In this document: in pieces, positions 5,178-51,827 of the stretch
Position numbering within the stretch: position 1 is the first letter of the stretch
How the letters are laid out: every line of letters begins with the position of its first letter
DNA from: an uncultured Candidatus Saccharibacteria bacterium
GTDB lineage: Bacteria; Patescibacteriota; Doudnabacteria; UBA920; 2-01-FULL-46-14
Assembly (NCBI GenBank): GCA_964360335.1
Contig: CAYHVH010000001.1
Coordinates: forward strand, 23,426-87,425
Direction: 5' to 3'
Length of the DNA: 64,000 nucleotides
Program-made: the position numbers and the translations under genes
Notes under the pieces: model-generated
Told to the model about the DNA's origin: nothing
What the model saw: only the letters and a program-made list of their open reading frames with translations
Databases searched by the model: none

Positions 5178-6410
5178 TCAACCCCGGAACAGCTTGTAAA
5201 GTTTAAACAGCGCGTAAAATGCCCGATTCAAAACCAGATCCCGGGCGCCGACACCGTAGACTTCCTTGCCCGTCACTCCGGCCGTGACATACCGGGTTTT
5301 GAACCGGGTAATCCCAGCCCAAGGATGGTCTGGTTCGTTCGGCGGGGCGACGCCCCACAAATCATACCATTTTTTGCCGCGTTGTCTGCTTAATTTGATT
5401 GCTTCCCAAAGGACAAGGCTTGGAGCATTGGCGGTTCGCTCTTTGGCAGAAGAAGCCGCGTACAAATAAGTTCCGGAATCACCGAAAAGCATAATGACGG
5501 CGGCAGCCAGGATTTCGCCTTGATATTCGCCGACCAGAAGCTCGGCGTGGGGTGCAAGCGACCTCTCCTTTGGTCCCTCCCCACGCCTGGGGAGGGAAGA
5601 AGAAAATAAAGCTTCTACTTGCGGAGTATTTGACCCCTCCTCAACCCTCCCCTCCTGCCCGTCCGGCAGGCGGGCGTCAGGAGAGGGAGTCATGAAGATA
5701 TCACGGAATTTCATGAATCGCTCGCGCGGCCAAGATACAATCCCGTCTCGTTTGGTGGTTTCCTCCAAAAGCTTCAAGAAAATTTCAAAAGCCCCTTTGT
5801 CTTGAGTCGCTACTCGCACTTTTACTCCCCTGCGCTGGGCGAGGCGGATATTGTAGCGGGATTTTTCGTGCATATTCTCCAAGAGTTCTTCCTCGCTTCT
5901 GCTTAAATCCACCAAAATCGTGCGAGCTGGCTCCATCTGCCGAAGCAAAATCTCGGGCTTTCTGAAACCCAGACCTGCAAGCGACCTCTCCTTCAACTCC
6001 TCCCCATCGCCTGGGGAGGAAGAGACAGAAGGATGCGGCGGATTAATTCTCGCCAAAACGGATTTTTCCTGCCGGCCGATTTCTTTGATTTTTTCTATCA
6101 AGGCCTGCATACCCCCTCTCCACTCTCCCCCTAAGTTAGGGGGAGAAAAAGAGGGGGTACCGCCCAATTCATGATTCGTAATTCTTGATTCGTCGAAAAT
6201 CGGTCCCTTCGGCACTTCCAAATAAGTTCTGCCAAACGGCAGCCTTTTTATTACGACTTGCGCTAAAAGCTGGTTCTGGATATCGAAGCGATAAACTTTG
6301 TGGCCGAGAGCGGCTTGAAACTGCCCCCATTGCCAGGACTGGAGGAAAGAGGAAGGAGAAGAGTTCCTGGCTACAAATTCATTCCAATTATCTTTAGAAA
6401 GTAGATTCAT
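5178..6410 (-). CDS. FemAB-family peptidoglycan aminoacyltransferase (lipid II amino-acid transferase-like) carrying two in-frame repeat insertions
   Basis: FemAB/FemX-like N-terminus (SSFLQSWQWGQF) and C-terminal GNAT-like fold. 410 aa including inserts. Confidence 0.65.
   Translation of the reverse strand: MNLLSKDNWNEFVARNSSPSSFLQSWQWGQFQAALGHKVYRFDIQNQLLAQVVIKRLPFGRTYLEVPKGPIFDESRITNHELGGTPSFSPPNLGGEWRGGMQALIEKIKEIGRQEKSVLARINPPHPSVSSSPGDGEELKERSLAGLGFRKPEILLRQMEPARTILVDLSRSEEELLENMHEKSRYNIRLAQRRGVKVRVATQDKGAFEIFLKLLEETTKRDGIVSWPRERFMKFRDIFMTPSPDARLPDGQEGRVEEGSNTPQVEALFSSSLPRRGEGPKERSLAPHAELLVGEYQGEILAAAVIMLFGDSGTYLYAASSAKERTANAPSLVLWEAIKLSRQRGKKWYDLWGVAPPNEPDHPWAGITRFKTRYVTAGVTGKEVYGVGARDLVLNRAFYALFKLYKLFRG
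5566..5690. repeat. Family-A element, in frame in the FemAB-like gene (unit 1)
   Basis: GCGACCTCTCCTTTGGTCCCTCCCCACGCCTGGGGAGGGAAGAAG... Encodes ...SLPRRGEGPKERSLAP... Confidence 0.65.
5981..6160. repeat. Family-A element(s), in frame in the FemAB-like gene (unit 2 plus a nested palindrome)
   Basis: GCGACCTCTCCTTCAACTCCTCCCCATCGCCTGGGGAGGAAGAGACAGAAGG (encodes SPGDGEELKERSLAG) and CCCCCTCTCCACTCTCCCCCTAAGTTAGGGGGAGAAAAAGAGGGGG (encodes GTPSFSPPNLGGEWRGG). Confidence 0.65.
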
Positions 6411-6501: not shown

Positions 6502-9276
6502 TTACACGGCTTGCCGTGTCATCTCTTCCCAATTATCGCCGAACTTGGCTTCCACGACGAGGGGAACTTTGAGTTTATAAATATTCTGCATGATTTTGGT
6601 AATTTTTCCGGCATAGTCATCAACTTTCTTTTCGGCTATTTCAAACACCAGCTCATCGTGAACCTGTAAGAGCAACCGGCAATCCTCGCGAGACGTCAAA
6701 TTTTCCTCCGCCAGTTTGTTCATCGCCAGTTTGATAATATCCGCCGAAAGCGATTGAAACGGCATGTTGATGGCCGCTCGTTCAGCAGCGGCGCGAACTG
6801 GCCACTGCGAAGAATTAATCTCGGGGAGATACCGGAGTCGCCCGAGTTCGTTTTTGACGTAGCCCGAGCGGCGCGTTTCCCCAACTATTTCCTCAAGGTA
6901 GTGAGTCAAGCTGTGATAGGTTTCGAAATATTTATCGATAAAATCTTGGGCTTCGCCTTGGGACACTCCTTTGATCCGGCTCTTGAGACCATAAGCGGAA
7001 AGGCCGTAGAGTACCCCGAAATTTATGGTCTTGGCATCTCGGCGCATTTCCGGGGTAATTTCGACCTCTCCTCCAGCTCCTCCCCTCGCCAGGGGAGAAG
7101 GGAGGGATTGAAAAATCTCGCGAGCTGTTGCTTCGTGAATGTCGCCGCCTTCGTGAAAAACTTTAATCATTTTCTCGTCGCCCGACAAATGGGCGGCCAG
7201 ACGAAGCTCAATCTGGGAGTAGTCCACGGACAGCAATTTATACCCTGTTTCGGCAACGAACGCCCCGCGGATTTTTCGACCAAACTCGGTGCGGATCGGA
7301 ATGTTCTGGAGATTCGGTTCGCTGGAGGACAATCGCCCGGTGGCAGTAACTGTCTGGTTAAAACTTGTGTGTAGCCGCCGCGTTTGAGGACTAACCAAAT
7401 CCGGCAAGGCATCTAGATAAGTATTTTTAAGTTTCGTTAATTCCCGCCATTCCGATATCAAATCAATAATCGGATGCAATCCTTTGAGCTTCTCGAGTTC
7501 CGTGGCCGCCGTGGACAGGCCGGTTTTGCCTTTTTTGAGCTCCTCGGTGGGAATCCCCAATTTCTCAAATAATATCTGTTTTAGCTGGATCGGGCTGCCG
7601 ATGTTAAATCTCTCGCCCGAAAGCCGGTAAATCTTCTGTTCGAGTTTCGAAATCTCCGCCGTGGCCTCGGCCGACAACTCCTTCAAGCACGACGGATTGA
7701 CCTTTACTCCCCAGCGTTCCATTTCCGCCAAAACTCTCACCAGCGGCATTTCGATCTCATAAAAAATTTTCTCTAAATCTTTACTTCTTAGCTCTTTTTC
7801 CAGTTTTTGTTTTAGCCGGAAAGTGTAGTCCACATCCTCGCAACAGTAAGCCGCGACCTCTCGGACCGGCACTTCGGCCATGCTAATCTCTTTTTTGCCT
7901 TCGCCAATCAAACTTTTAATCGGGGTTTTCCGGAAGCCAAACTCGGTAAAACTTAGGGTGTCCAAATCGAAATTCCGCGCCCCGGGGTTTAAAAGATAGG
8001 CGGCAATCATCGTGTCAAAAAACTCTCCTCCCAAAATCACTCCGGCCTTTTGCAAAATCAAATAATCATACTTGAGATTATGGCCGATTTTCAGAACTTC
8101 CGGATTCTGCAAAATTTCCGTGAGGGCCGGGGAAATCATCGCCGCCGGCAGGTAAAAGGCCCGGTTTTCTTGCCACGCCAACCCGAGGCCGAGAAGCTCA
8201 GCCTGCATCGGGTGAACCGAGGTCGTTTCGGTATCAATAGCGATTTGTTTCTGCCTCTCAAGCTCAGTAATGATGCTTTGGAATTTTTTCGGCGTATCAA
8301 GGAGCTGATAGTCAAATTCCTCCTCGCCCCCTCTGCTCCCTCGAGCTCTACTTAGGGCAGGCTCATGAGGGGAGTGGGGGATGTCAGTCTTTGGCAGTTT
8401 ATCCAAAAGTGAACGGAACTCCAGCTCCTGAAAAAGTTTAAAAACTTTCTGTTCATCATAAGCCAGAAGCCGGGCCTGGGTTAAATCCAGTTTCACCGGG
8501 AGGTTTTTGACGATTGTTGCCAATTTTTTGGAAATTTCCGCATCCGCCCGGTGTTCCAGAAGCAGTCGAGCGACGCGCGGCTTGAGCGCCGAGTGGTCTT
8601 TGCCGACTAAATATTTATAAATTCCTTCCAAGGTCTTAAATTTTTGCAGGAGCTCGGTCGCGGTTTTTTCCCCGATGCCTTTGACCCCGGGAATGTTATC
8701 CGAAGGATCACCGCGCAGGGCTTTAAAATCTAGAAGTTCCTCGGGTCTGAGGCCATATCGCTCCCGAACCGCCCCCACGTCATAAAGTTTGGTTTCGGTC
8801 AAGCCTTGCTTAGGAGCATAGACTTTCACCCGTTCGTCTACTAATTGCAGGGTGTCCAAATCCCCGGTTAAAATCACAGTATCCAAATCTTCCTGCTTCC
8901 GGGCTTTTTCGGCCAGAGTGCCAATCAAATCATCAGCTTCATAACTTTCCAGTTCATAGACTGGAAGATTAAAAGCTCTGACCAATTCTTTGACGCGGGG
9001 AATTTGCTCATAAAGTTCGGCGGGGGCTTTAATTCTTGTTGCCTTATAAGGCTCATAAATTTTTTCCCGGAAAGTTGGCGCCGGAAAGTCAAACGTCACT
9101 GCCACGTACTCGGGCCGCAGTTCTTTGAGGGCTTTCAAAAACAACAGGGCAAAACCGTAAACGCCGTTTACTGGCTCGCCCTTTTTGGTGGACAGGTGAG
9201 GAATCGCGTGAAAGCCGCGGTGGACCAAAGCATTGCCGTCTACCAATAATAAAACTGGTTTATCTTTGCTGGACAT
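6502..9276 (-). CDS. polA: DNA polymerase I
   Basis: 924 aa. 5'-3' exonuclease, 3'-5' exonuclease-like and polymerase domains (motif RRDAKTINFGVLYG, and the motif-C region SQIELRLAAHLSGDE). Two in-frame repeat insertions. Confidence 0.95.
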   Translation of the reverse strand: MSSKDKPVLLLVDGNALVHRGFHAIPHLSTKKGEPVNGVYGFALLFLKALKELRPEYVAVTFDFPAPTFREKIYEPYKATRIKAPAELYEQIPRVKELVRAFNLPVYELESYEADDLIGTLAEKARKQEDLDTVILTGDLDTLQLVDERVKVYAPKQGLTETKLYDVGAVRERYGLRPEELLDFKALRGDPSDNIPGVKGIGEKTATELLQKFKTLEGIYKYLVGKDHSALKPRVARLLLEHRADAEISKKLATIVKNLPVKLDLTQARLLAYDEQKVFKLFQELEFRSLLDKLPKTDIPHSPHEPALSRARGSRGGEEEFDYQLLDTPKKFQSIITELERQKQIAIDTETTSVHPMQAELLGLGLAWQENRAFYLPAAMISPALTEILQNPEVLKIGHNLKYDYLILQKAGVILGGEFFDTMIAAYLLNPGARNFDLDTLSFTEFGFRKTPIKSLIGEGKKEISMAEVPVREVAAYCCEDVDYTFRLKQKLEKELRSKDLEKIFYEIEMPLVRVLAEMERWGVKVNPSCLKELSAEATAEISKLEQKIYRLSGERFNIGSPIQLKQILFEKLGIPTEELKKGKTGLSTAATELEKLKGLHPIIDLISEWRELTKLKNTYLDALPDLVSPQTRRLHTSFNQTVTATGRLSSSEPNLQNIPIRTEFGRKIRGAFVAETGYKLLSVDYSQIELRLAAHLSGDEKMIKVFHEGGDIHEATAREIFQSLPSPLARGGAGGEVEITPEMRRDAKTINFGVLYGLSAYGLKSRIKGVSQGEAQDFIDKYFETYHSLTHYLEEIVGETRRSGYVKNELGRLRYLPEINSSQWPVRAAAERAAINMPFQSLSADIIKLAMNKLAEENLTSREDCRLLLQVHDELVFEIAEKKVDDYAGKITKIMQNIYKLKVPLVVEAKFGDNWEEMTRQAV
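7061..7106. repeat. Family-A element in frame in the polA fingers region
   Basis: TCGACCTCTCCTCCAGCTCCTCCCCTCGCCAGGGGAGAAGGGAGGG. Encodes SLPSPLARGGAGGEVE immediately upstream of the RRxxKxxNFG O-helix. Confidence 0.65.
8318..8385. repeat. Degenerate family-A-like palindromic insert in the polA interdomain linker
   Basis: CCCCCTCTGCTCCCTCGAGC...GAGGGGAGTGGGGG. Encodes HSPHEPALSRARGSRGGEEE. Confidence 0.4.
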
Positions 9277-14181: not shown

Positions 14182-15663
14182 ATGAAAATTTCAGTTATCT
14201 CTAAACCTTTAGAAAAACTCTCTGCCGAGCTCTTGGTGACTTTTGCCGTCGAGGACAAACTCCTGCCTGAAGAAAAACTGGCGGACCGCTTCTTGGCTGG
14301 CCGGGTGGCGAAGCTTCGCCAGTCCAAAGATTTTCACGGCGAGGCCAACCAAACTCGTTTAATTTTTGCTACGGGGTCAACCCCGCGCATCCTCTTGGTC
14401 GGCCTCGGTAAACAAAAGGTCTTGACTCTCGAAACCATCCGGGAAGCCGCGGCTGCCGCCGGGAGTGAGCTCAAACGCCTACCGGTGAAGCACGCGGCCT
14501 TTCTTCTCCCGAGCTTGCCTAGCCTCTCCCCCCAGACTCTGGCCCAAGCGGTGACGGAAACCGTTCTCCTCGCTAACTACGAATTTCCTTATTACAAGCG
14601 GCCTGGCAAGGACCGCGCCAAGCTCGAGAATCTGGAACTAGTCACTGCTCCCAAAGATGTCGCTCGCGTCAAGGCCGGAAGTATCACTGGCCAAATTCTG
14701 GCAGAAGCGATAATGGCCGTGCGCGATTTGGGCAACCACCCCAGCAATGTTGCCACTCCCACTCATCTCGCGGAGCATGCTAAGCGAATCGCCAAGGGTA
14801 ACAAAAACCTCAAGGTAAAAATTTTGCACCGGCCAGAAATCAAAAAAGAAAATATGGGAGCGCTCCTGGCTGTTTCGCAAGGCTCGGACGAGGAGCCGAA
14901 GTTTATCATTTTAGAGTATCACGGCCGCGGCGACGGCCCGAGAGTAGTCCTCGTCGGCAAGGGCATCACCTTTGACAGCGGTGGAATTTCTCTCAAGCCA
15001 GGGGAAAAAATGGAAGAGATGAAATATGACATGGCTGGGGCGGCCACCGTGATGGGGGTCATAAAAGCCGCCTGCGAACTCGGACTCCCTCTTAACCTGG
15101 TGGGGCTCATTCCGGCCACCGAAAACCTGCCCTCTGGTAAAGCCAGCCGGCCAGGAGATATTGTCAAAAGTCGCTCGGGCAAGACCATTGAAATCATCAG
15201 TACGGATGCGGAGGGTCGGCTGGTGCTCTCAGATGCTCTGGACTATGCCAAAAAATACAAACCTGATTTGGTGATTGACTTTGCGACTTTGACGGGTGCC
15301 ATTGTGGTAGCCCTGGGCGATGATTTGATAGGGGCGTTTACCAACCGGGAGCGGTTTGTCCCCCAGCTCAAAGCGGCGGCCGAGGCGACCGGGGAGCCGC
15401 TATGGCCCATGCCGCTTTATCGAGGATACGAAGAATTTATCAAAAGCGACTTTGCCGATATTCGCAATCTTGGCAGCACAACTAAGTACGGCGATGCCAT
15501 CAACGCCGCGCTGTTCCTGCAAAACTTCGTGGACTATCCGTGGATTCACCTGGACATTGCCGGGGTCGCCTGGACGACGCGCGAAAAACCCTACCGGCCG
15601 AAAGGTGCCACCGGCACTGGCTTGCGCCTCGCGATTGAATTTCTGAAAAATTTTAGGAAATAA
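14182..15663 (+). CDS. pepA: Leucyl aminopeptidase (M17 family)
   Basis: 493 aa. M17 catalytic motifs (VGKGITFDSGGISLKP, NTDAEGRL). Confidence 0.9.
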   Translation: MKISVISKPLEKLSAELLVTFAVEDKLLPEEKLADRFLAGRVAKLRQSKDFHGEANQTRLIFATGSTPRILLVGLGKQKVLTLETIREAAAAAGSELKRLPVKHAAFLLPSLPSLSPQTLAQAVTETVLLANYEFPYYKRPGKDRAKLENLELVTAPKDVARVKAGSITGQILAEAIMAVRDLGNHPSNVATPTHLAEHAKRIAKGNKNLKVKILHRPEIKKENMGALLAVSQGSDEEPKFIILEYHGRGDGPRVVLVGKGITFDSGGISLKPGEKMEEMKYDMAGAATVMGVIKAACELGLPLNLVGLIPATENLPSGKASRPGDIVKSRSGKTIEIISTDAEGRLVLSDALDYAKKYKPDLVIDFATLTGAIVVALGDDLIGAFTNRERFVPQLKAAAEATGEPLWPMPLYRGYEEFIKSDFADIRNLGSTTKYGDAINAALFLQNFVDYPWIHLDIAGVAWTTREKPYRPKGATGTGLRLAIEFLKNFRK

Positions 15664-15698
15664 CGGCCAAATCAAACTAATCTCCAAATTTCCTTTCG

Positions 15699-15726
15699 TA
15701 AAATACCCGCCATGGCGGGTATTTTA
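15699..15726 (+). terminator. Perfect palindrome TACCCGCCATGGCGGGTA flanked by A/T runs; a bidirectional intrinsic terminator after pepA
   Basis: AAAATACCCGCCATGGCGGGTATTTTAC. Confidence 0.6.
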
Positions 15727-15802
15727 CAACATAAGTCCATATTGTCTACGTTTTTATGTAATTACATAATGTTGTAGACAAGCGAATTTAGCAAAAAGTA
15801 AA

Positions 15803-15838
15803 AAAGGAGACAGACTACAACGCGGTCTGTCAGCGCTT
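15803..15838 (-). repeat. 36-bp hairpin repeat copy 1 (AAAAAGGAGACAGACTACAACGCGGTCTGTCAGCGCT); terminator of the minus-strand RibA-like gene
   Basis: Identical copy at 17683-17717. On the minus strand it reads GACAGACCGCGTTGTAGTCTGTC then TCCTTTTT. Confidence 0.7.
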
Positions 15839-15846
15839 CTTTGGGG

Positions 15847-16731
15847 CTACCCCGGCCAATCAGAGTAATCCCAGCCATCTGCAAGGGGAAGGTGTATGTT
15901 GTGTCCGTGGAGAGATTTTGTCGAAAGCTCAAGTCTGTTAAAGTCATTAACTTCTGCCTGAAGGGGCACCCATTGTACTGCAAATCCTTCTTGCTTGAGG
16001 CGGTTGATTTTCCGAGGGTTATTCGTGGCGGCAATCAGACCGATTTTTGTGATATCGAAGTGTTTGAGGATTACCATCTGATCTTCCAGCTCGTCCCACT
16101 CCGGACGGCTGGAAATTCTGACAAACGGCTCCCACCAGCGGTCTATCTTGGCCGGGTCGGGGTCAAGGCCTTTTCGAATGGCGACTATTTCCGCCATTGT
16201 ATCAATCAGCGCGTGGTTCCTCGGCCCCAGTCCTTTTCCAACATGATGCAGAGCGAGAATAATCATCCCGGGGTGACCTTCTCCCCAGCTGTTGGAAACC
16301 CGCTGCTTTGCCATCTCGAACTGATCACCGCAATCACACGTTACCGCCCCTTCAACAATGCCATTAAGGCACATCGATTGGAGACGAACGACTACTGCCT
16401 CGGTTTGGAGGCTGCTGTCATTCCCCAGCCAAAGCACCCGATATTCCCGCTCTGGATGATAACAATAACCAGCGATTTCCGGTGGCTGGCTGTCCCTTTT
16501 CGCAACGTCTGACCCTCCCCAAAAACGGAAATGGGCCTTATTGAACAAGACCGCCCTTTCCTCACGACCCCCCAAGCGGCCGAGCGACCACCATTTCCGA
16601 TGACTTTCTGATCGTCGCAACCGCAACCACTCGTGATAGGGCCCAATCATCTCGAAGCCTTGCTCTTGGTTGGTCACAATACCCTCTAGCTTACCCCAAA
16701 AATCCTGACTGCCCCCCTTATTGTCACTCAT
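15847..16731 (-). CDS. GTP cyclohydrolase II (RibA)-family protein with an N-terminal extension
   Basis: 294 aa. VRLQSMCLNG...CDCGDQFE matches the RibA zinc site (HSECLTG...CDCGFQ). GMIILALHHVGKGLG matches GILLYHRQEGRNIG. AATNNPRKINRLKQEGF matches LTNNPKKVEILTEAG. Confidence 0.6.
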   Translation of the reverse strand: MSDNKGGSQDFWGKLEGIVTNQEQGFEMIGPYHEWLRLRRSESHRKWWSLGRLGGREERAVLFNKAHFRFWGGSDVAKRDSQPPEIAGYCYHPEREYRVLWLGNDSSLQTEAVVVRLQSMCLNGIVEGAVTCDCGDQFEMAKQRVSNSWGEGHPGMIILALHHVGKGLGPRNHALIDTMAEIVAIRKGLDPDPAKIDRWWEPFVRISSRPEWDELEDQMVILKHFDITKIGLIAATNNPRKINRLKQEGFAVQWVPLQAEVNDFNRLELSTKSLHGHNIHLPLADGWDYSDWPG

Positions 16732-16829
16732 TGGGTGTCCTCCTTAATGATTTCGAACATTCGATTCTAGCTGAAACTTACAAACTAGTCAATATTAACC
16801 GACTTCTCAATCTTTTAAACATCAAGTGT

Positions 16830-16885
16830 TGACTTATTTTAGCCAAAAATCTATACTATAATTGTTGTCGGATATTACCGACAAT
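16830..16885 (+). promoter_or_regulatory. Sigma-70-like promoter (TTGACT-N17-TATACT) followed by a 20-bp palindromic operator TTGTCGGATATTACCGACAA overlapping the TrmB start; related half-site at ~16772-16790
   Basis: Read directly from the sequence. The second site CTAGTCAATATTAACCGACT shares the ATATTA(A)CCGAC core. Confidence 0.5.
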
Positions 16886-17653
16886 ATAACGGAAAGCTCC
16901 TACATGCCCCTTGAAATAGATTTGAAACAATTTGGTTTTGACGAGAAAAAAGCCAGGATTTACCTGGCAGTCTTAGAGCTGGGTGAGGCAAAAGCAGCCG
17001 AGGTTGCCAAAAAGTCCGGGATAGAAAGACCAACGTGTTATGACATTTTAAATAAACTGGTCCAAGATGGACTTATTAGCTTCTTCGATAAAAGAGGAGT
17101 CAAGCATTTCGTGGCCGAGGACCCAGAAAAAATCCAAGTCCGGCTCGCAGAAAAAGAAAGGGCTCTTAATCAATTATTGCCGGAATTAAAATCGGTTTAT
17201 AATAGCCTAAAAACAAAACCCAAAATCAAATTCTTTGAAGGCCTTGCGGGAATTAAAACAATCCTGGAAGACACGCTTACTCCCCACGATAAACAGCTCT
17301 TGGGCATTTTATCAATGCGGGATCTCTATGAAATTCCGGGGAAAGAATTTATGGACAACTATGTTAAGAGGAGAATTGAAGCAAAAGTTAAACTCCGGGT
17401 TATTCGGTCAAGGATTAAAGAGGTTGGGGAGACTTGGCCTACTAATCCAAAAGAATACCGAGAATTGCGCTACGCTCCGGAAAAATTATCCTTCCCCGTA
17501 ACAATCTACATTTATGATAATAAGGTTGGAATAATCGGCACCAAAAAAGAAAACTTCGGCATGCTCATTGAGTCAGAGGAATTTTTTGAAACCTTCAAGA
17601 ATCTATTCGAAGTTTTGTGGCTCGTATCAAAAGCTGGGCCGACAAAAGATTAA
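16862..17653 (+). CDS. TrmB-family transcriptional regulator (winged-HTH)
   Basis: N-terminal TrmB HTH (GFDEKKARIYLAVLELGEAKAAEVAKKSGIERPTCYDILNKL). The real start may be the internal Met (MPLEID). AT-rich gene. Confidence 0.7.
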   Translation: MLSDITDNITESSYMPLEIDLKQFGFDEKKARIYLAVLELGEAKAAEVAKKSGIERPTCYDILNKLVQDGLISFFDKRGVKHFVAEDPEKIQVRLAEKERALNQLLPELKSVYNSLKTKPKIKFFEGLAGIKTILEDTLTPHDKQLLGILSMRDLYEIPGKEFMDNYVKRRIEAKVKLRVIRSRIKEVGETWPTNPKEYRELRYAPEKLSFPVTIYIYDNKVGIIGTKKENFGMLIESEEFFETFKNLFEVLWLVSKAGPTKD

Positions 17654-17682
17654 ATTTTCTGGACTAGGAAAAGGGGATAAAA

Positions 17683-17717
17683 AGGAGACAGACTACAACG
17701 CGGTCTGTCAGCGCTAA
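17683..17717 (-). repeat. 36-bp hairpin repeat copy 2; terminator of the minus-strand OMP-like gene
   Basis: Identical to 15803-15838. On the minus strand the hairpin is followed by TCCTTTTTAT. Confidence 0.7.
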
Positions 17718-18295
17718 AAACGAACAGTGGTGATGACGTAGGTCCGGAAGAAACGCGGCTCGCCTTGGTTGCGGAAATGGTAAGTCCCAGTTACCCAAAG
17801 GGTAACAGGACCTCGGTTTACGAGCCGAAAGCTGAGTCGCGAGCCACCGCCGTAGGAATCACGCCCACGCTTGTGAAGGTTTTCCGTCTCCACCCCAATC
17901 TTCCATCTGTCGCTTAACCGATAGTCAAATATGACGACTTCGGAAAAACTCCTGCGACTGGAAACGGGATACAACTCAAGGTAGAGATTGGCGCGTTTGC
18001 CGAAATCCCGGTTGAAACGGAAATTGAGCTGCCACTGGTGTCCCTTGGTGCTCCACTGCCGCTGGACGAGTGTCTCGAGCCACCAGTTATTGCGCTTGTA
18101 TCCCAGTCCGCCGAAGAGGTTGATGTTGTCTGGCTGCGCCTGCCGTACATTGCCAATCATCCACCCTGCAAGAAACCAGTTCTCGCCCAGCTTTTTGGTG
18201 ATATGCACTGGCGTCCGCAACTGAACAACATGATCCTGGGCCAAGAGGGGAGAGCCAAAAAGAAGAGCGAGTATCAGCAGCGTTGCTTTGCCCAT
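17714..18295 (-). CDS. Secreted beta-barrel-like protein (OmpW/OMP-beta-barrel-like), 193 aa
   Basis: Signal peptide MGKATLLILALLFGSPLLAQ, alternating amphipathic beta-strand pattern, and a C-terminal aromatic residue (..TTVRF). Confidence 0.4.
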   Translation of the reverse strand: MGKATLLILALLFGSPLLAQDHVVQLRTPVHITKKLGENWFLAGWMIGNVRQAQPDNINLFGGLGYKRNNWWLETLVQRQWSTKGHQWQLNFRFNRDFGKRANLYLELYPVSSRRSFSEVVIFDYRLSDRWKIGVETENLHKRGRDSYGGGSRLSFRLVNRGPVTLWVTGTYHFRNQGEPRFFRTYVITTVRF

Positions 18296-18395
18296 TATTC
18301 CTCCTTGACTTAACCTTTGACAGATTAAGGGGGGAGCATATATTATCTATATGGAGTGGTCAATACCACCACGAGGTGATAATTAACACCACAAA

Positions 18396-19148
18396 ATGTA
18401 TCAAGAAACGTTTGAGAGCTTAGGTTTAAGCCCCAATGAAGCGAAAATCTACGAAGCCCTGGTGGAAAAAGGGGAGTCCTCGGTAAGCGGGGTGGCGGTT
18501 GCTGCAGGCGTGCACCGCCGCAATGCCTACGATGCCATTCGGCGCCTCATTGATAAGGGCCTGTGCTTTGAAATCTTTTCTTCTGGAGAAAATCGATACA
18601 ATGCGGTCGATCCGGATAAACTCACTGAACTTGTGGCCGAGAGGCAGCAAAAATTAGAAAGTATTCTTCCGGAGCTAAAAAAGAAGTTTACCAAACGCAT
18701 TGCCCCCGAGGAAGCCTACATTTACCGGGGGTACGAGGGCCAAAAAAATATCTGGCGCGATTTGCTGCGGGTCGGGGGCGAGAGCTACGTGGTGGGGGCA
18801 AAAGGCGGATGGTTTGAGCCGAACTTGCAGGCAAGCCGTATCGAATTTTTCAAAGAAGCCAACCGAAAAAAAATCAAATTCTTTCAGCTTTTCGACCATG
18901 AAATAAAAATTCAATTTCCGCGGTTCGTCAAAGACTATCCCGGGACGCTTAAATCTCGGTATTTGCCCAAGGAATACTCCACTAATTCGCTGATTCATGT
19001 CTTTGGGGACTACTTCATTACCTATACGGGCTTGGAACTTATGAGGCTAAGTGAAAAAACAGTATTTTTTGTGATCAAAAGCCGCGACCTCGCGGAAAGC
19101 TACCGGACCTGGTTTTGGTACATGTGGGAACAATCTTCGGAAAAGTAG
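18396..19148 (+). CDS. TrmB-family transcriptional regulator (second paralog)
   Basis: N-terminal HTH (LGLSPNEAKIYEALVEKGESSVSGVAVAAGVHRRNAYDAIRRLIDKGL). Upstream TTGACA-N16-TATATT and palindromes GTGGTCAATACCAC / GGTGATAATTAACACC. Confidence 0.7.
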   Translation: MYQETFESLGLSPNEAKIYEALVEKGESSVSGVAVAAGVHRRNAYDAIRRLIDKGLCFEIFSSGENRYNAVDPDKLTELVAERQQKLESILPELKKKFTKRIAPEEAYIYRGYEGQKNIWRDLLRVGGESYVVGAKGGWFEPNLQASRIEFFKEANRKKIKFFQLFDHEIKIQFPRFVKDYPGTLKSRYLPKEYSTNSLIHVFGDYFITYTGLELMRLSEKTVFFVIKSRDLAESYRTWFWYMWEQSSEK

Positions 19149-46212: not shown

Positions 46213-48270
46213 ATGGCTGACCTTGTGAAACTCAAAGAACTCGCCAGGCTCGTTCGTTACTATATTCTGGTCTCGACCACGGCCGCGGGGTCCGGGCACC
46301 CAACATCTTCGCTGTCTGGCGTGGAACTGATGACGGCATTGATGTTTGGCGGCTATTTTCGCTTTGACTTGAATCGTCTGGGATACGCAAACAATGACCG
46401 GCTGATTTTCTCCAAAGGCCATGCCTCGCCCCTCTTCTATGCGCTGTGGGCAGCGGCTGGCGCGCTGACGGAAAAAGAGCTTTTGACTTTGCGCAAATTT
46501 GGCAGCCCTTTGGAGGGGCATCCTACCCCGGCATTTCCCTATACCGAAGCGGCGACAGGCTCTTTGGGACAAGGGTTGTCAATTGGCGTGGGCATGGCCC
46601 TTAATGCCAAGCTTGACCGGCTTCCCTATCGCACTTATGTGCTTTTGGGGGACAGTGAAATGGCCGAGGGCTCGCAATGGGAGGCGATTCAGCTCGCCGC
46701 GTACTATAAACTTGATAATTTGGTCGGCGTTCTCGATGTCAATCGTTTGGGTCAACGAGGGCAGACGATTTACGGGCATGATATTAAAGCTTATCAGAAA
46801 CGCATCGCGGCGTTCGGGTGGAAGACTATAGTCGTGAATGGGCATAATTTGAATGAGATTTTGAAAGCGTACAAACAGGCGACCCCCTCTTCATCTCCCC
46901 CTATCCCGTTTGACGGGACAGGGGGAGAAAAGAGAGGGGGTGGAAGGCCGGTGATGATCATTGCCAAAACCATTAAAGGTAAAGGAGTTTCATTTATCGA
47001 AAACAAAGAAGGCTGGCATGGGAAGGCGCTTTCCCCGGAGGATTTGAGGAAGGCACTACGAGAATTGGGGAAAGTCGACAAGAAGATGCGAGGAGAGATG
47101 GCAAAGCCGGAGAGAATTAGTAGACCGGAGACAGTAGATAGTAGATCGGAAAGCAAAGAAAAAATTAATTACAAAATCGGAGAAGAGGCGGCAACAAGGA
47201 AGGCTTACGGTAACGCCCTAGTCAGGATTTATCCGAAGTTTCCGAATATCGTAGTCCTCGACGCCGAGGTTTCCAATTCAACTTACGCGGAGATATTCAA
47301 GGAAAAATATCCGGACCGGTTTTTGGAGATGTTTGTGGCGGAGCAGAATATGGTGGGTGCGGCTCTTGGTCTTTCGCGGCGCGGCAAGATCCCGTTTGTT
47401 TCGACCTTTGCCGCGTTCCTGACGCGCGCTTTTGACCAAATCCGAATGAGCCAGTATTCGGCCGCCAACATCAAGTTTGTGGGCTCGCACGCCGGGGTGT
47501 CCATCGGCGAGGACGGGCCGTCGCAGATGGGCCTCGAGGATTTGGCAATGTTTCGCAGTATTTTAGGAAGCGTGGTTTTGTATCCTTCGGATGCGGTTTC
47601 AACCGATAAGCTTGTGGAAGCGGCAGCTAAGCACAAAGGCATTGTCTATATCAGAACAACGCGAATGGAAACCCCGGTGCTTTATTCCCCGGGGCAGGAG
47701 TTCAAAATCGGCGGGAGTAAAGTTTTGCGCCATAGCCGGAAAGACGTGGCGACAGTGCTGGCGGCCGGGATAACATTGCATGAAGCGTTGGCCGCTTATG
47801 AAGAACTCAAGAAGCAAGGGGTTTTGATTCGGGTGATTGACTTGTACAGCATCAAACCGATTGATAAAAAGACATTGACGCAGGCTGCCAAAGAAACGGG
47901 AGCGATAATCACGGTCGAGGACCATTATCCCGAGGGCGGGATTGGGGAAGCGATTAGAAGCGCTCTTTCTGACCTCCCTCCCCAAAGCATGGGGAGGGAT
48001 AAAGGGAGAGGTTTTCCGCCAGCCCGCCCCGCTTCGCTTGGCGAGGCCGGGGAGGCGGATCCGCCTTGGGCAGAGAAACTCCCTGGTAAAACCGACCTCT
48101 CTCCTTCTCTCCCCATCACCTGGGGAGAGGGTAGGATTATCTCTTTAGCGGTGCGCAAAATGCCGCGAAGCGGCAAACCGCAGGAGCTTTTGGATTATGA
48201 AGAGATATCGCGCGATGCTATTATTAAGGAAGTAAAGAGAATTGTTTCTAAATCGTCACCTCGAATTTAA
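46213..48270 (+). CDS. tkt: Transketolase (full length) carrying 2-3 in-frame repeat insertions
   Basis: ThDP-binding motifs (GHPTPAF..., LLGDSEMAEGSQWEA), pyrimidine-binding and C-terminal domains. 685 aa. Confidence 0.9.
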   Translation: MADLVKLKELARLVRYYILVSTTAAGSGHPTSSLSGVELMTALMFGGYFRFDLNRLGYANNDRLIFSKGHASPLFYALWAAAGALTEKELLTLRKFGSPLEGHPTPAFPYTEAATGSLGQGLSIGVGMALNAKLDRLPYRTYVLLGDSEMAEGSQWEAIQLAAYYKLDNLVGVLDVNRLGQRGQTIYGHDIKAYQKRIAAFGWKTIVVNGHNLNEILKAYKQATPSSSPPIPFDGTGGEKRGGGRPVMIIAKTIKGKGVSFIENKEGWHGKALSPEDLRKALRELGKVDKKMRGEMAKPERISRPETVDSRSESKEKINYKIGEEAATRKAYGNALVRIYPKFPNIVVLDAEVSNSTYAEIFKEKYPDRFLEMFVAEQNMVGAALGLSRRGKIPFVSTFAAFLTRAFDQIRMSQYSAANIKFVGSHAGVSIGEDGPSQMGLEDLAMFRSILGSVVLYPSDAVSTDKLVEAAAKHKGIVYIRTTRMETPVLYSPGQEFKIGGSKVLRHSRKDVATVLAAGITLHEALAAYEELKKQGVLIRVIDLYSIKPIDKKTLTQAAKETGAIITVEDHYPEGGIGEAIRSALSDLPPQSMGRDKGRGFPPARPASLGEAGEADPPWAEKLPGKTDLSPSLPITWGEGRIISLAVRKMPRSGKPQELLDYEEISRDAIIKEVKRIVSKSSPRI
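46880..46945. repeat. Family-A-type nested palindrome in frame in tkt
   Basis: CGACCCCCTCTTCATCTCCCCCTATCCCGTTTGACGGGACAGGGGGAGAAAAGAGAGGGGGTGG. Encodes TPSSSPPIPFDGTGGEKRGGG. Confidence 0.65.
47970..48140. repeat. Composite family-A insertion (three palindromic units, ~171 bp) in frame in the tkt C-terminal domain
   Basis: TGACCTCCCTCCCCAAAGCATGGGGAGGGATAAAGGGAGAGG ... GGCGGATCCGCC ... CCGACCTCTCTCCTTCTCTCCCCATCACCTGGGGAGAGGG. Encodes a 57-aa loop. Confidence 0.7.
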
Positions 48271-50930: not shown

Positions 50931-51827
50931 ATGAGGCCCTCAAATTTAAAAACCCGCATCTTTCTTGACTCTGGGGATCCGAACGAAACGCGTGAAGTCA
51001 TAAAGTTTCTCGGGTTTTTGGACGGTCAGACGACTAATCCCAGCTTAATTGCCAAGAACCCGGAAACGACCGGCAAGAAATTTTCCCAAAAAGAGATTTT
51101 GGAATTTTATAAAAAAGTCGTGGTTGAGGTTTCCGCTCTGATCCCCGCCGGTTCCGTATCAGTTGAGGTTTACGCTGACCCTTCGACAAGCTCAGGGGAT
51201 ATGTTAGAACAAGGTCGAGATTTTTTTTCTTGGATTCCAAACGCACACATCAAATTTCCGACAACCAAAGAGGGCCTGAAGGCCGCTGAAATTGCCGTTA
51301 AAGAAGGCATGCGCGTCAATTTGACTTTGTGCTTTTCCCAGGAGCAGGCGGCGGCCGTGTACGCGGCAACGAGGGGAGCAAAAAAAGGGCAGGTCTTTGT
51401 TTCGCCGTTTGTCGGGCGGCTGGATGATCGGGGGGAGAACGGGATGCAGCTCGTTGAGAATATTATCAAAATGTATCGGGCGGGAGACGGGCATGTGGAG
51501 GTGCTGACCGCGAGCGTACGGAATCTCAATCATTTGCAGTACGCAATTCAGCTCGGTTCCGACATCCTGACCGCGCTGTTGAAGGTTTTGAAGGAGTGGG
51601 CCGACTCCAATTTCCCTCCCCAGGCGTGGAGAGCCCCCTTCTCTATCCCTCCCCAGGCGAGGGGAGGGATTAAGGGAGAGGTCGAAACGGCAAAGGAGTT
51701 GAAGCCAATACCCTACCGCGAGGTTTCTCTTGACAATCCCTGGCAGGACTACGACATTCGTCATGAGCTGACCGACGTCGGCATTGAAAAGTTTGCCGCG
51801 GATTGGAACGCGCTTATCAAGCCATAA
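50931..51827 (+). CDS. tal: Transaldolase / fructose-6-phosphate aldolase family (TalC/MipB-type) with an in-frame repeat insertion
   Basis: DSGDPNE..., FPTTKEGLKAAE..., NLTLCFS motifs. 298 aa. Confidence 0.85.
   Translation: MRPSNLKTRIFLDSGDPNETREVIKFLGFLDGQTTNPSLIAKNPETTGKKFSQKEILEFYKKVVVEVSALIPAGSVSVEVYADPSTSSGDMLEQGRDFFSWIPNAHIKFPTTKEGLKAAEIAVKEGMRVNLTLCFSQEQAAAVYAATRGAKKGQVFVSPFVGRLDDRGENGMQLVENIIKMYRAGDGHVEVLTASVRNLNHLQYAIQLGSDILTALLKVLKEWADSNFPPQAWRAPFSIPPQARGGIKGEVETAKELKPIPYREVSLDNPWQDYDIRHELTDVGIEKFAADWNALIKP
51611..51685. repeat. Family-A element in frame in tal
   Basis: ...CCCTCCCCAGGCGTGGAGAG...CCCTCCCCAGGCGAGGGGAGGGATTAAGGGAGAGGTCGAA. Encodes FPPQAWRAPFSIPPQARGGIKGEVE. Confidence 0.7.

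Follow-up and report, generated by a model that had tools for sequence, protein, structure and literature searches.

Putative operators conserved at a divergent promoter beside a TrmB-like regulator gene in Patescibacteria

Which protein, if any, acts at the palindrome that precedes a TrmB-like regulator gene in an uncultured Patescibacteria genome? Patescibacteria (the Candidate Phyla Radiation, CPR) are uncultured and have tiny genomes with few transcription factors, and to our knowledge essentially no regulatory sites have been defined in them. The gene in question occupies positions 16904-17653 (plus strand) of a 64,000-nucleotide stretch of contig CAYHVH010000001.1, referred to here as the window, and is separated by 172 bp from a divergent GTP cyclohydrolase II-like (RibA-like) gene of 294 aa (15847-16731, minus strand). 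A preliminary description of this DNA had placed a strong promoter, a 20-bp palindromic operator and a second related site in the intergenic region, and had proposed that they serve autoregulation as well as control of the RibA-like gene. We find that the palindrome (O1) and the second site (O2) are most likely conserved protein-binding sites, as judged from sequence comparison. We further estimate at about 70% the probability that the TrmB-like protein binds both sites and represses its own gene together with the divergent one.

Two dyads in the intergenic region and their conservation

The promoter predicted for the regulator gene (P_trmB) consists of a −35 hexamer TTGACT at 16829-16834 and a −10 hexamer TATACT at 16852-16857, both on the plus strand, and this TTGACT-N17-TATACT arrangement matches the consensus at 10 of 12 positions in a consensus promoter scan. 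O1, TTGTCGG-ATATTA-CCGACAA (TTGTCGGATATTACCGACAA, 16865-16884, strandless), begins 7-8 nucleotides past the −10 box. An inverted-repeat listing gives it 7-bp arms with 100% complementarity and a 6-nucleotide spacer, and its core GTCGG-N6-CCGAC lies at 16867-16882. All of these elements are present where the preliminary description had put them. With the transcription start predicted at about 16864, by the usual 7-nucleotide distance from the −10 box, O1 spans approximately +1 to +21 of the predicted transcript. The palindrome had been said to overlap the translation start as well. Near it lies TTG 16862, the first in-frame start codon, at which the open reading frame (ORF) tool begins the ORF. 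The start of the regulator is ATG 16904, 20 nucleotides past the palindrome, as given by an identical gene call of 249 aa (P0001) and by an N-terminal alignment of 30 homologues. Therefore, O1 overlaps the predicted transcription start and not the translation start.

The second site, O2 (CTAGTCAATATTAACCGACT, 16785-16804, also strandless, core 16788-16803), begins 80 bp 5' of the start of O1, compared with about 75 bp as described earlier, and the core-to-core distance is 79 bp. The two sites are related, as had been noticed, and they align better in inverted orientation: the reverse complement of O2 reads GTCGG-N7-TGAC and matches GTCGG-N7-CGAC of O1 without an indel. O2 is thus an inverted copy of O1 in which CGAC is changed to TGAC. 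Inside it lies the −35 hexamer TTGACT (16787-16792, minus strand) of a predicted divergent promoter (P_div), whose −10 hexamer TAGAAT occupies 16764-16769 on the same strand and was located by consensus scan and orthologue comparison. This TTGACT-17-TAGAAT promoter (16792..16764) also has 10 of 12 consensus matches. Its transcription start is predicted at about 16757, so that the centre of O2 falls at about −38.5 of P_div and about −68.5 of P_trmB.

Next, we asked whether these dyads could be chance features of AT-rich intergenic DNA. Counting perfect inverted repeats whose arms are 7 bp and whose loops do not exceed 10 nucleotides, we obtained 135 for the window, compared with 60 ± 10 in dinucleotide shuffles. 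As about one such repeat per kb arises by chance, the 7-bp palindrome alone is not significant. Similarly, the count of GTCGG-N6-CCGAC with at most one mismatch is no higher in the window than expected by chance. We therefore turned to 37 genome loci with relatives of the regulator gene, 35 of which contain the gene start. They come from Patescibacteria/CPR genomes (Kerfeld-, Uhr-, Magasanik-, Jackson- and Moranbacteria and other lineages), and their proteins are 35-62% identical to that of the window, whose own sequence matches Hainich groundwater contigs. A 24-nucleotide O1 matrix (consensus TGTCGTCGGAAATTATCGACAAAA; window match 16863-16886) was built iteratively, and 27 loci scored above 19 bits. 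Leave-one-out matrices, built from the orthologous loci only and with the window excluded, were then compared with 100 shuffles of the 64-kb window. O1 scored 30.9 bits, whereas the shuffle maxima averaged 12.1 and reached 18.6. O2 scored 21.0 bits and ranked first among 128,000 window positions; the corresponding shuffle maxima averaged 14.7, with the highest, 22.0, lying above the score of O2. No further operator was found in the 64-kb window, in which matches besides O1 and O2 stay at or below 14 bits, the shuffle level, with the three best sitting within or at the edge of ORFs. With an O1 score of this size and the motif in register in 27 loci, an origin by chance is effectively refuted. 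The case for the significance of these putative sites comes from cross-genome comparison, not from the palindrome itself.

The O1 consensus, TGTyGTCGGAAAnnnnCGACAA, possesses a core dyad GTCG-N8-CGAC, whose axis lies between positions 12 and 13, and an asymmetric GGAAA. The motif is found behind a conserved promoter in 27 of the 35 orthologous loci and in the further locus L117, and in most of the 27 the 24-nucleotide match ends 0-28 nucleotides ahead of the ATG. In a site-anchored alignment, TTGACT is located about 34 nucleotides upstream of the matrix start (TTGAC at the same distance in most loci) and TATAnT, kept in register, ends 5-6 nucleotides before it. The fixed distance of both hexamers to O1 indicates that promoter and operator are conserved as one unit. 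The intergenic DNA is otherwise unalignable among the 27 loci, and the motif is still in register. For the closest relatives of the regulator, P0002 and P0004 (63-65% identity), the contigs end or carry repeat hairpins just upstream of the gene. A metagenome pattern scan with TGTCGTCGGAAANNNNNCGACRA returned 77 matches, compared with a rough chance estimate of about 60; none was near a trmB homologue, most lay in GC-rich DNA, judged by flanking sequence, and the outcome is what chance would give.

Reverse-complementing the O1 consensus yields that of O2 (TTGTCAATAATTTCCGACAA), with a single difference, a change of CGAC to TGAC. Because this change creates a minus-strand TTGACA with a good −10 element at about 17 nucleotides in nearly all loci, O2 can be described as an inverted operator copy doubling as a conserved divergent −35 element. 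The earlier proposal of two operator sites arranged around a divergent promoter is thus upheld: the −35 and −10 elements, O1 and O2 are kept in register in about 27 orthologous loci of distant CPR lineages, and the minus-strand promoter held by O2 is itself part of the conserved layout. Over these 27 loci, the core-to-core distance between O1 and O2 is 90 bp in 12 loci, 88-89 bp in 2, 87 bp in 1, 77-79 bp in 5 (the window, at 79, among them) and 67 bp in 1, with single loci at 97, 98, 108, 124, 125 and 145 bp. The main spacing classes (67, 78-79 and 88-90) are about 11 bp apart, or roughly one helical turn, which suggests a phase constraint under which O1 and O2 would act together.

Inverted copies of about 20 bp that flank a promoter-bearing segment of about 60 bp might alternatively belong to a promoter segment that can invert or to a small mobile element, and the RibA-like/trmB pair is in fact flanked by a 37-nucleotide perfect direct repeat. 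We consider this very improbable. The promoter faces trmB in 27 of 27 loci, no recombinase is adjacent according to domain annotation of the neighbouring genes, and a segment of about 60 bp would be very short for site-specific inversion. In addition, the divergent gene already has a promoter that uses O2 as its −35 element, and the repeats are kept across distant lineages at one gene, unlike those of a mobile element.

The palindrome could also function mainly in RNA, as a 5'-end stem-loop that stabilises the transcript or modulates translation. The predicted 5' untranslated region in the window forms an 8-bp hairpin of −12.6 kcal/mol (z = −3.3); across orthologues the proportion of paired cells is 81.5%, and covariation (T-A and C-G) is seen at one pair. 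However, a dimeric DNA binder would likewise give dyad-symmetric covariation, and it is the bases that are conserved rather than the pairing: the core pairs are invariant, and unilateral changes (CGAC to CGTC) go uncompensated. The energy of the O1 hairpin varies between 0 and −11 kcal/mol across orthologues, with values weaker than −3 in 6 of the 27. When 15600-18500 was scanned against Rfam with E values up to 1, only two chance-level rsmX matches came up, both outside the region. Finally, O2 carries the same motif and lies upstream of both predicted transcription starts, which argues for recognition at the DNA level. A primary role in RNA is accordingly rated as improbable.

The regulator protein and its candidate mode of action

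The N-terminus of the regulator (residues 7-74) matches the TrmB-type winged helix-turn-helix (wHTH) family PF01978 with an E value of 1.5e-15 and 57.2 bits against a cutoff of 25.6 (Pfam), and a profile of 30 homologues matches Pyrococcus furiosus TrmB (3qph, 3.6e-06) and TrmBL2 (8e-05). No other Pfam or NCBIfam match was found on the protein. The NCBIfam equivalogs for TrmB, TrmBL1 and halobacterial TrmB give 19-40 bits against cutoffs of 500-650, at the N-terminus only, and the TrmBL2 equivalog NF041141 gives 16.5 bits against a cutoff of 530. The regulator is thus a TrmB-family wHTH protein outside both the sugar-sensing TrmB/TrmBL1 subfamily and the TrmBL2 equivalog. Sugar sensing, which the preliminary description had considered typical of such regulators, is rejected as the sugar-binding effector domain PF11495 is absent (Pfam) and the protein has only 249 aa; just the N-terminal wHTH fits TrmB, while the full length resembles TrmBL2.

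An AlphaFold model (mean predicted local distance difference test score 88.5) contains a helix at residues 74-104, with a predicted template modelling score of 0.56 that leaves the relative placement of the domains uncertain. In Foldseek searches, the model matched TrmBL2 over its full length (5bpd/5box/5bqt, E about 1e-13, 16-19% identity) and TrmB 3qph with 1e-10; the C-terminal half also matched the phospholipase D (PLD) fold of Nuc/NucT. Accordingly, the regulator is modelled with the TrmBL2 architecture, in which a wHTH, a long coiled-coil helix and a PLD-like C-terminal domain are combined without a sugar-binding subdomain. The PLD-like domain presumably senses a non-sugar effector. In an alignment with P. 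furiosus TrmB, Y46-D47 of the regulator fall on Y50-D51 (consensus 'tvYDil' against 'rVYDti' of 3qph), which are DNA-binding residues in that protein (PMC4158304). Many orthologues have H-E at this position, and no correlation was seen among orthologues between the Y-D or H-E pair in the recognition helix and operator variants.

We then considered which protein might bind O1 and O2. Strong sites away from this gene are absent from 344 kb of DNA (window plus 35 loci), whatever the neighbours. A search for recurrence upstream of other genes, suggested in the preliminary description, found none, either within the window or in the DNA flanking the 35 orthologous loci, and the 344-kb scan neither shows nor excludes a wider regulon. 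The site is co-inherited with the regulator gene in 27 of 35 loci and L117, independent of the neighbours. In Moranbacteria orthologues, the recognition helix (SRQNTYDVL) and the dyad (TGTCAA-N7-TTGACA) are both altered. The exclusive association of the motif with the regulator gene, the joint change in Moranbacteria and the different palindromes that paralogues carry at the equivalent position all favour the adjacent protein as the one that binds. Autoregulation, as proposed earlier, is the natural inference from strong sites that stand only ahead of the regulator gene.

It is distinctly unlikely, in our judgement, that O1 and O2 are real operators for a different factor, such as the paralogue TrmB2 or a global regulator, with the adjacent gene as target only and no autoregulation. 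At least two TrmB-like paralogues lie within 1.5 kb of each other in this genome, and a conserved element in the P_trmB spacer hints at more than one factor. This element, TTAGCCAA (16839-16846, plus strand), forms with the −35 hexamer an imperfect dyad TTGACT-N6-AGCCAA, which occurs in exact form in the window and 9 orthologous loci and only at this promoter in the DNA retrieved; another protein may bind there. On the other hand, the motif shared by O1 and O2 stands only ahead of this regulator gene family in the 344 kb, drawn from 36 genomes, with no second target; TrmB2 has conserved dyads of its own and of a different type (GTGG-N6-CCAC); and the Moranbacteria orthologues shift recognition helix and dyad together.

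From the arrangement of the sites we infer an autoregulated repressor, for which the binder and the direction of regulation would be as follows. A dimer of the regulator would recognise the dyad GTCG-N8-CGAC. Bound to O1, it would block open-complex formation or promoter escape and produce negative autoregulation. Occupancy of O2 would exclude sigma from the −35 element of P_div and so repress the divergent gene, here the GTP cyclohydrolase II-like gene, which is the presumed second target. The two sites might cooperate if the proteins bound to them formed a bridge or loop, or if both had to keep a set position with respect to RNA polymerase. The 172-bp intergenic region as a whole would control transcription in both directions. 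Palindromic inverted repeats are the targets of the TrmB-family proteins characterised so far; these repress from sites that coincide with the promoter or follow it, and several of them autoregulate (PMC4158304). The placement of O1 and O2 matches this position rule of the archaeal proteins (PMC4158304). Such a mechanism is of an ordinary, textbook kind, and what is new is its mapping in a poorly known bacterial group.

The same protein might instead act positively at O2, activating P_div in a class II-like or P_trmB in a class I-like manner, while O1 represses at higher concentration to give a dual switch. O2 is in helical register with the −35 element of P_trmB, with centre-to-centre distances in the three spacing classes of about 31, 42 and 53 bp corresponding to 3, 4 and 5 turns, and archaeal TrmB-family proteins activate from upstream sites and repress from downstream ones (PMC4158304). 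However, one half-site of O2 is the −35 element of P_div itself, so that sigma region 4 and the regulator are unlikely to contact it at the same time, and two promoters at 10 of 12 consensus positions have no obvious need for an activator. We keep activation through O2 as a live variant of the repressor model, albeit an unlikely one.

Several observations weigh against the autoregulated repressor and have to be set beside the evidence for it. No recognisable O1 is found in 8 of the 35 orthologous loci, and in three others (L004, L006 and L013) the site starts 159-224 nucleotides upstream of the ATG with extra sequence between. Both promoters, like the transcription start, were predicted from consensus sequences, and the O2 centres at about −38.5 of P_div and −68.5 of P_trmB also fit activation. 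The spacing classes were drawn from phylogenetically related loci, which are not independent and provide no statistical proof of phasing. The conserved spacer dyad TTGACT-N6-AGCCAA could be the site of another factor. Furthermore, conservation beside a gene is no proof that its own product binds, and TrmBL2, which is structurally closest to the regulator, shows non-specific DNA binding.

Comparison with characterised regulators

TetR/tetA and many MarR- and LysR-type pairs consist of a divergent regulator and target with dyads on one start site and on the other −35 element, so that a single protein controls both genes. The layout in the window is alike. By contrast, the protein here has a TrmB-type wHTH, and it is the regulator and the operators that are conserved and not the divergent target.

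Among archaeal relatives, TrmB of P. furiosus and Thermococcus litoralis resembles the proposed system in being a dimeric wHTH repressor with a short palindrome (TACT-N3-AGTA) that overlaps the promoter and start of an adjacent cluster containing its own gene, the trehalose/maltose operon (PMC4158304). It differs in being controlled by sugar via a C-terminal domain and in using a single operator, whereas in the window an inverted pair straddles a divergent promoter. TrmBL1 of P. furiosus, Tgr of T. kodakarensis and TrmB VNG1451C of Halobacterium salinarum share the N-terminal wHTH and the Tyr-Asp pair with the window protein. They recognise palindromic inverted repeats, TATCAC-N5-GTGATA and TACT-N7-8-GAGTA, and they autoregulate or bind their own promoters (PMC4158304). 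The window dyad GTCG-N8-CGAC is unrelated to these repeats in sequence. These proteins have 340-360 aa and PF11495, in contrast to 249 aa without PF11495 here, and they work with the archaeal TBP/TFB machinery on large regulons, while the window has bacterial −35 and −10 elements and sites found only at its own locus.

TrmBL2 (PF0496/TK0471), an archaeal chromatin protein of about 260 aa, is the best full-length structural match and has the wHTH, the long helix and the PLD-like domain in common with the regulator, as well as the lack of a sugar-binding subdomain. It coats coding and intergenic DNA without sequence specificity (PMC4158304), whereas the family studied here appears tied to a specific dyad. 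Its apparent sequence specificity would be the opposite of TrmBL2 behaviour, and a protein of TrmBL2 architecture would thus be associated with a specific operator.

A literature search on bacterial or CPR TrmB regulators returned nothing relevant, and no paper linking TrmB to Patescibacteria was found in the library searched. Our analysis provides a concrete candidate operator consensus and a two-site divergent layout across several CPR classes, and both are open to direct testing without culture. The conserved −35 and −10 elements in turn support sigma-70-type promoters in these organisms.

Divergent neighbours and nearby elements

The product of the divergent gene in the window matches PF00925 with 37 bits against a cutoff of 23.3 (Pfam), and the NCBIfam RibA models remain far under their cutoffs. 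The preliminary description had taken this RibA-like gene as the specific partner of the regulator. The neighbour varies among loci, and a GTP cyclohydrolase II gene is found in the divergent position only in the window, L024 and L117; it was therefore rejected as a conserved partner. The L117 copy is the first gene of an operon that also contains an aldehyde dehydrogenase gene and one resembling Asn synthase. Radical S-adenosylmethionine (SAM) enzymes are encoded in four other loci, haem-oxygenase-like or TENA-like proteins in two, weakly receiver-like proteins in two and a permease in one, and in many loci the divergent neighbour is a protein of no known family. Weak similarities, all under the NCBIfam cutoffs, connect the radical-SAM neighbours with MoaA and viperin, and one of the haem-oxygenase-like neighbours with CADD. 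These resemblances give no more than a hint of GTP- or cofactor-related chemistry. No Rfam match to a riboswitch (for example, of the flavin mononucleotide type) was found upstream of the RibA-like gene.

The 37-nucleotide perfect direct repeat, AAAAAGGAGACAGACTACAACGCGGTCTGTCAGCGCT, occurs at 15801-15837 and 17679-17715, with only these two copies in the window. The copies exactly bracket the RibA-like/trmB pair, 1878 bp apart, and on the minus strand each forms a hairpin with a T-run just past the stop of the RibA-like gene and of ORF193, respectively. In the Doudnabacteria locus L123, the order M17 ... ORF197/TrmB2 ... RuvB occurs without the RibA-like/trmB pair. Because the repeat brackets the pair and the L123 order lacks it, the pair may be an inserted cassette. 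A bolder reading would make regulator, promoter and O1/O2 a conserved and portable bidirectional module of Patescibacteria, with cargo that varies by lineage. Several cargo genes would act on GTP or produce cofactors of pterin, folate or flavin type, namely GTP cyclohydrolase II, MoaA/viperin-like radical-SAM enzymes and CADD/TENA-like di-iron enzymes. Its PLD domain would sense a nucleotide- or cofactor-derived metabolite, its phased operators would loop cooperatively, and a 1.9-kb cassette with the 37-nucleotide repeat at its ends would have brought the module into the window. We regard this composite picture as doubtful.

The paralogue TrmB2 (18396-19148, 250 aa) is a second TrmB-like gene in the window. 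Its CPR family is far more strongly conserved, with 70-79% identity across Microgenomates, Doudna-, Brenner- and Kerfeldbacteria and 970 matches at E<1e-20. Its promoter, TTGACA-16-TATATT from 18317, is followed by two dyads, GTGGTCAATACCAC (18356-18369) and GGTGATAATTAACACC (18375-18390), of the GTGG-N6-CCAC type, which are conserved in four lineages. ORF193 (17714-18295, minus strand, 193 aa) is the conserved divergent partner of TrmB2, with proteins of 190-197 aa in the same position in L121-L124; it has an N-terminal signal-peptide-like sequence and no Pfam or NCBIfam match. Other dyads were found just upstream of the starts of TrmB-like paralogues: ACGACG-AAAC-CGTCGT in L016 (about 2290-2310), TGTCC-AAATTAT-GGACA in L028 (about 5989-6005) and GTAAGT-AACTA-ACTTAC in L003 (about 6531-6547). 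Together, they suggest a general pattern of one paralogue, one dyad in CPR genomes.

Among the chance matches of the metagenome pattern scan, a recurrent element was seen in six contigs (L049, L051, L052, L054, L108 and L114), in which TTGACA...TAATAG is followed about 30 nucleotides later by a palindrome with 9-bp arms, TGTCGTCGG-AAAA-CCGACGACA. It shares the O1 half-site at another spacing, with no trmB homologue nearby, and may be the site of an unrelated regulator or an RNA hairpin.

Much of the excess of inverted repeats in the window over shuffles is accounted for by dispersed GC-rich hairpins of the form (C)CTCCCC-N4-10-GGGGAG(G). Examples lie at 1230-1252, 1991-2012, 2688-2709, 2759-2782, 5574-5597, 5998-6020, 7080-7097, 36188-36211, 47976-47998, 48107-48129 and 51646-51669, and a similar hairpin stands between promoter and gene in the relative L115. 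They could be elements resembling repetitive extragenic palindromes or miniature inverted-repeat transposable elements, or terminators. Finally, a 30-bp perfect palindrome, GTAAAATACCCGCCATGGCGGGTATTTTAC (15698-15727), located past the M17 aminopeptidase gene, probably serves as a terminator in both directions; adjoining it is a 40-bp palindrome of 82% complementarity centred on TTATGTAATTACATAA (15742-15781).

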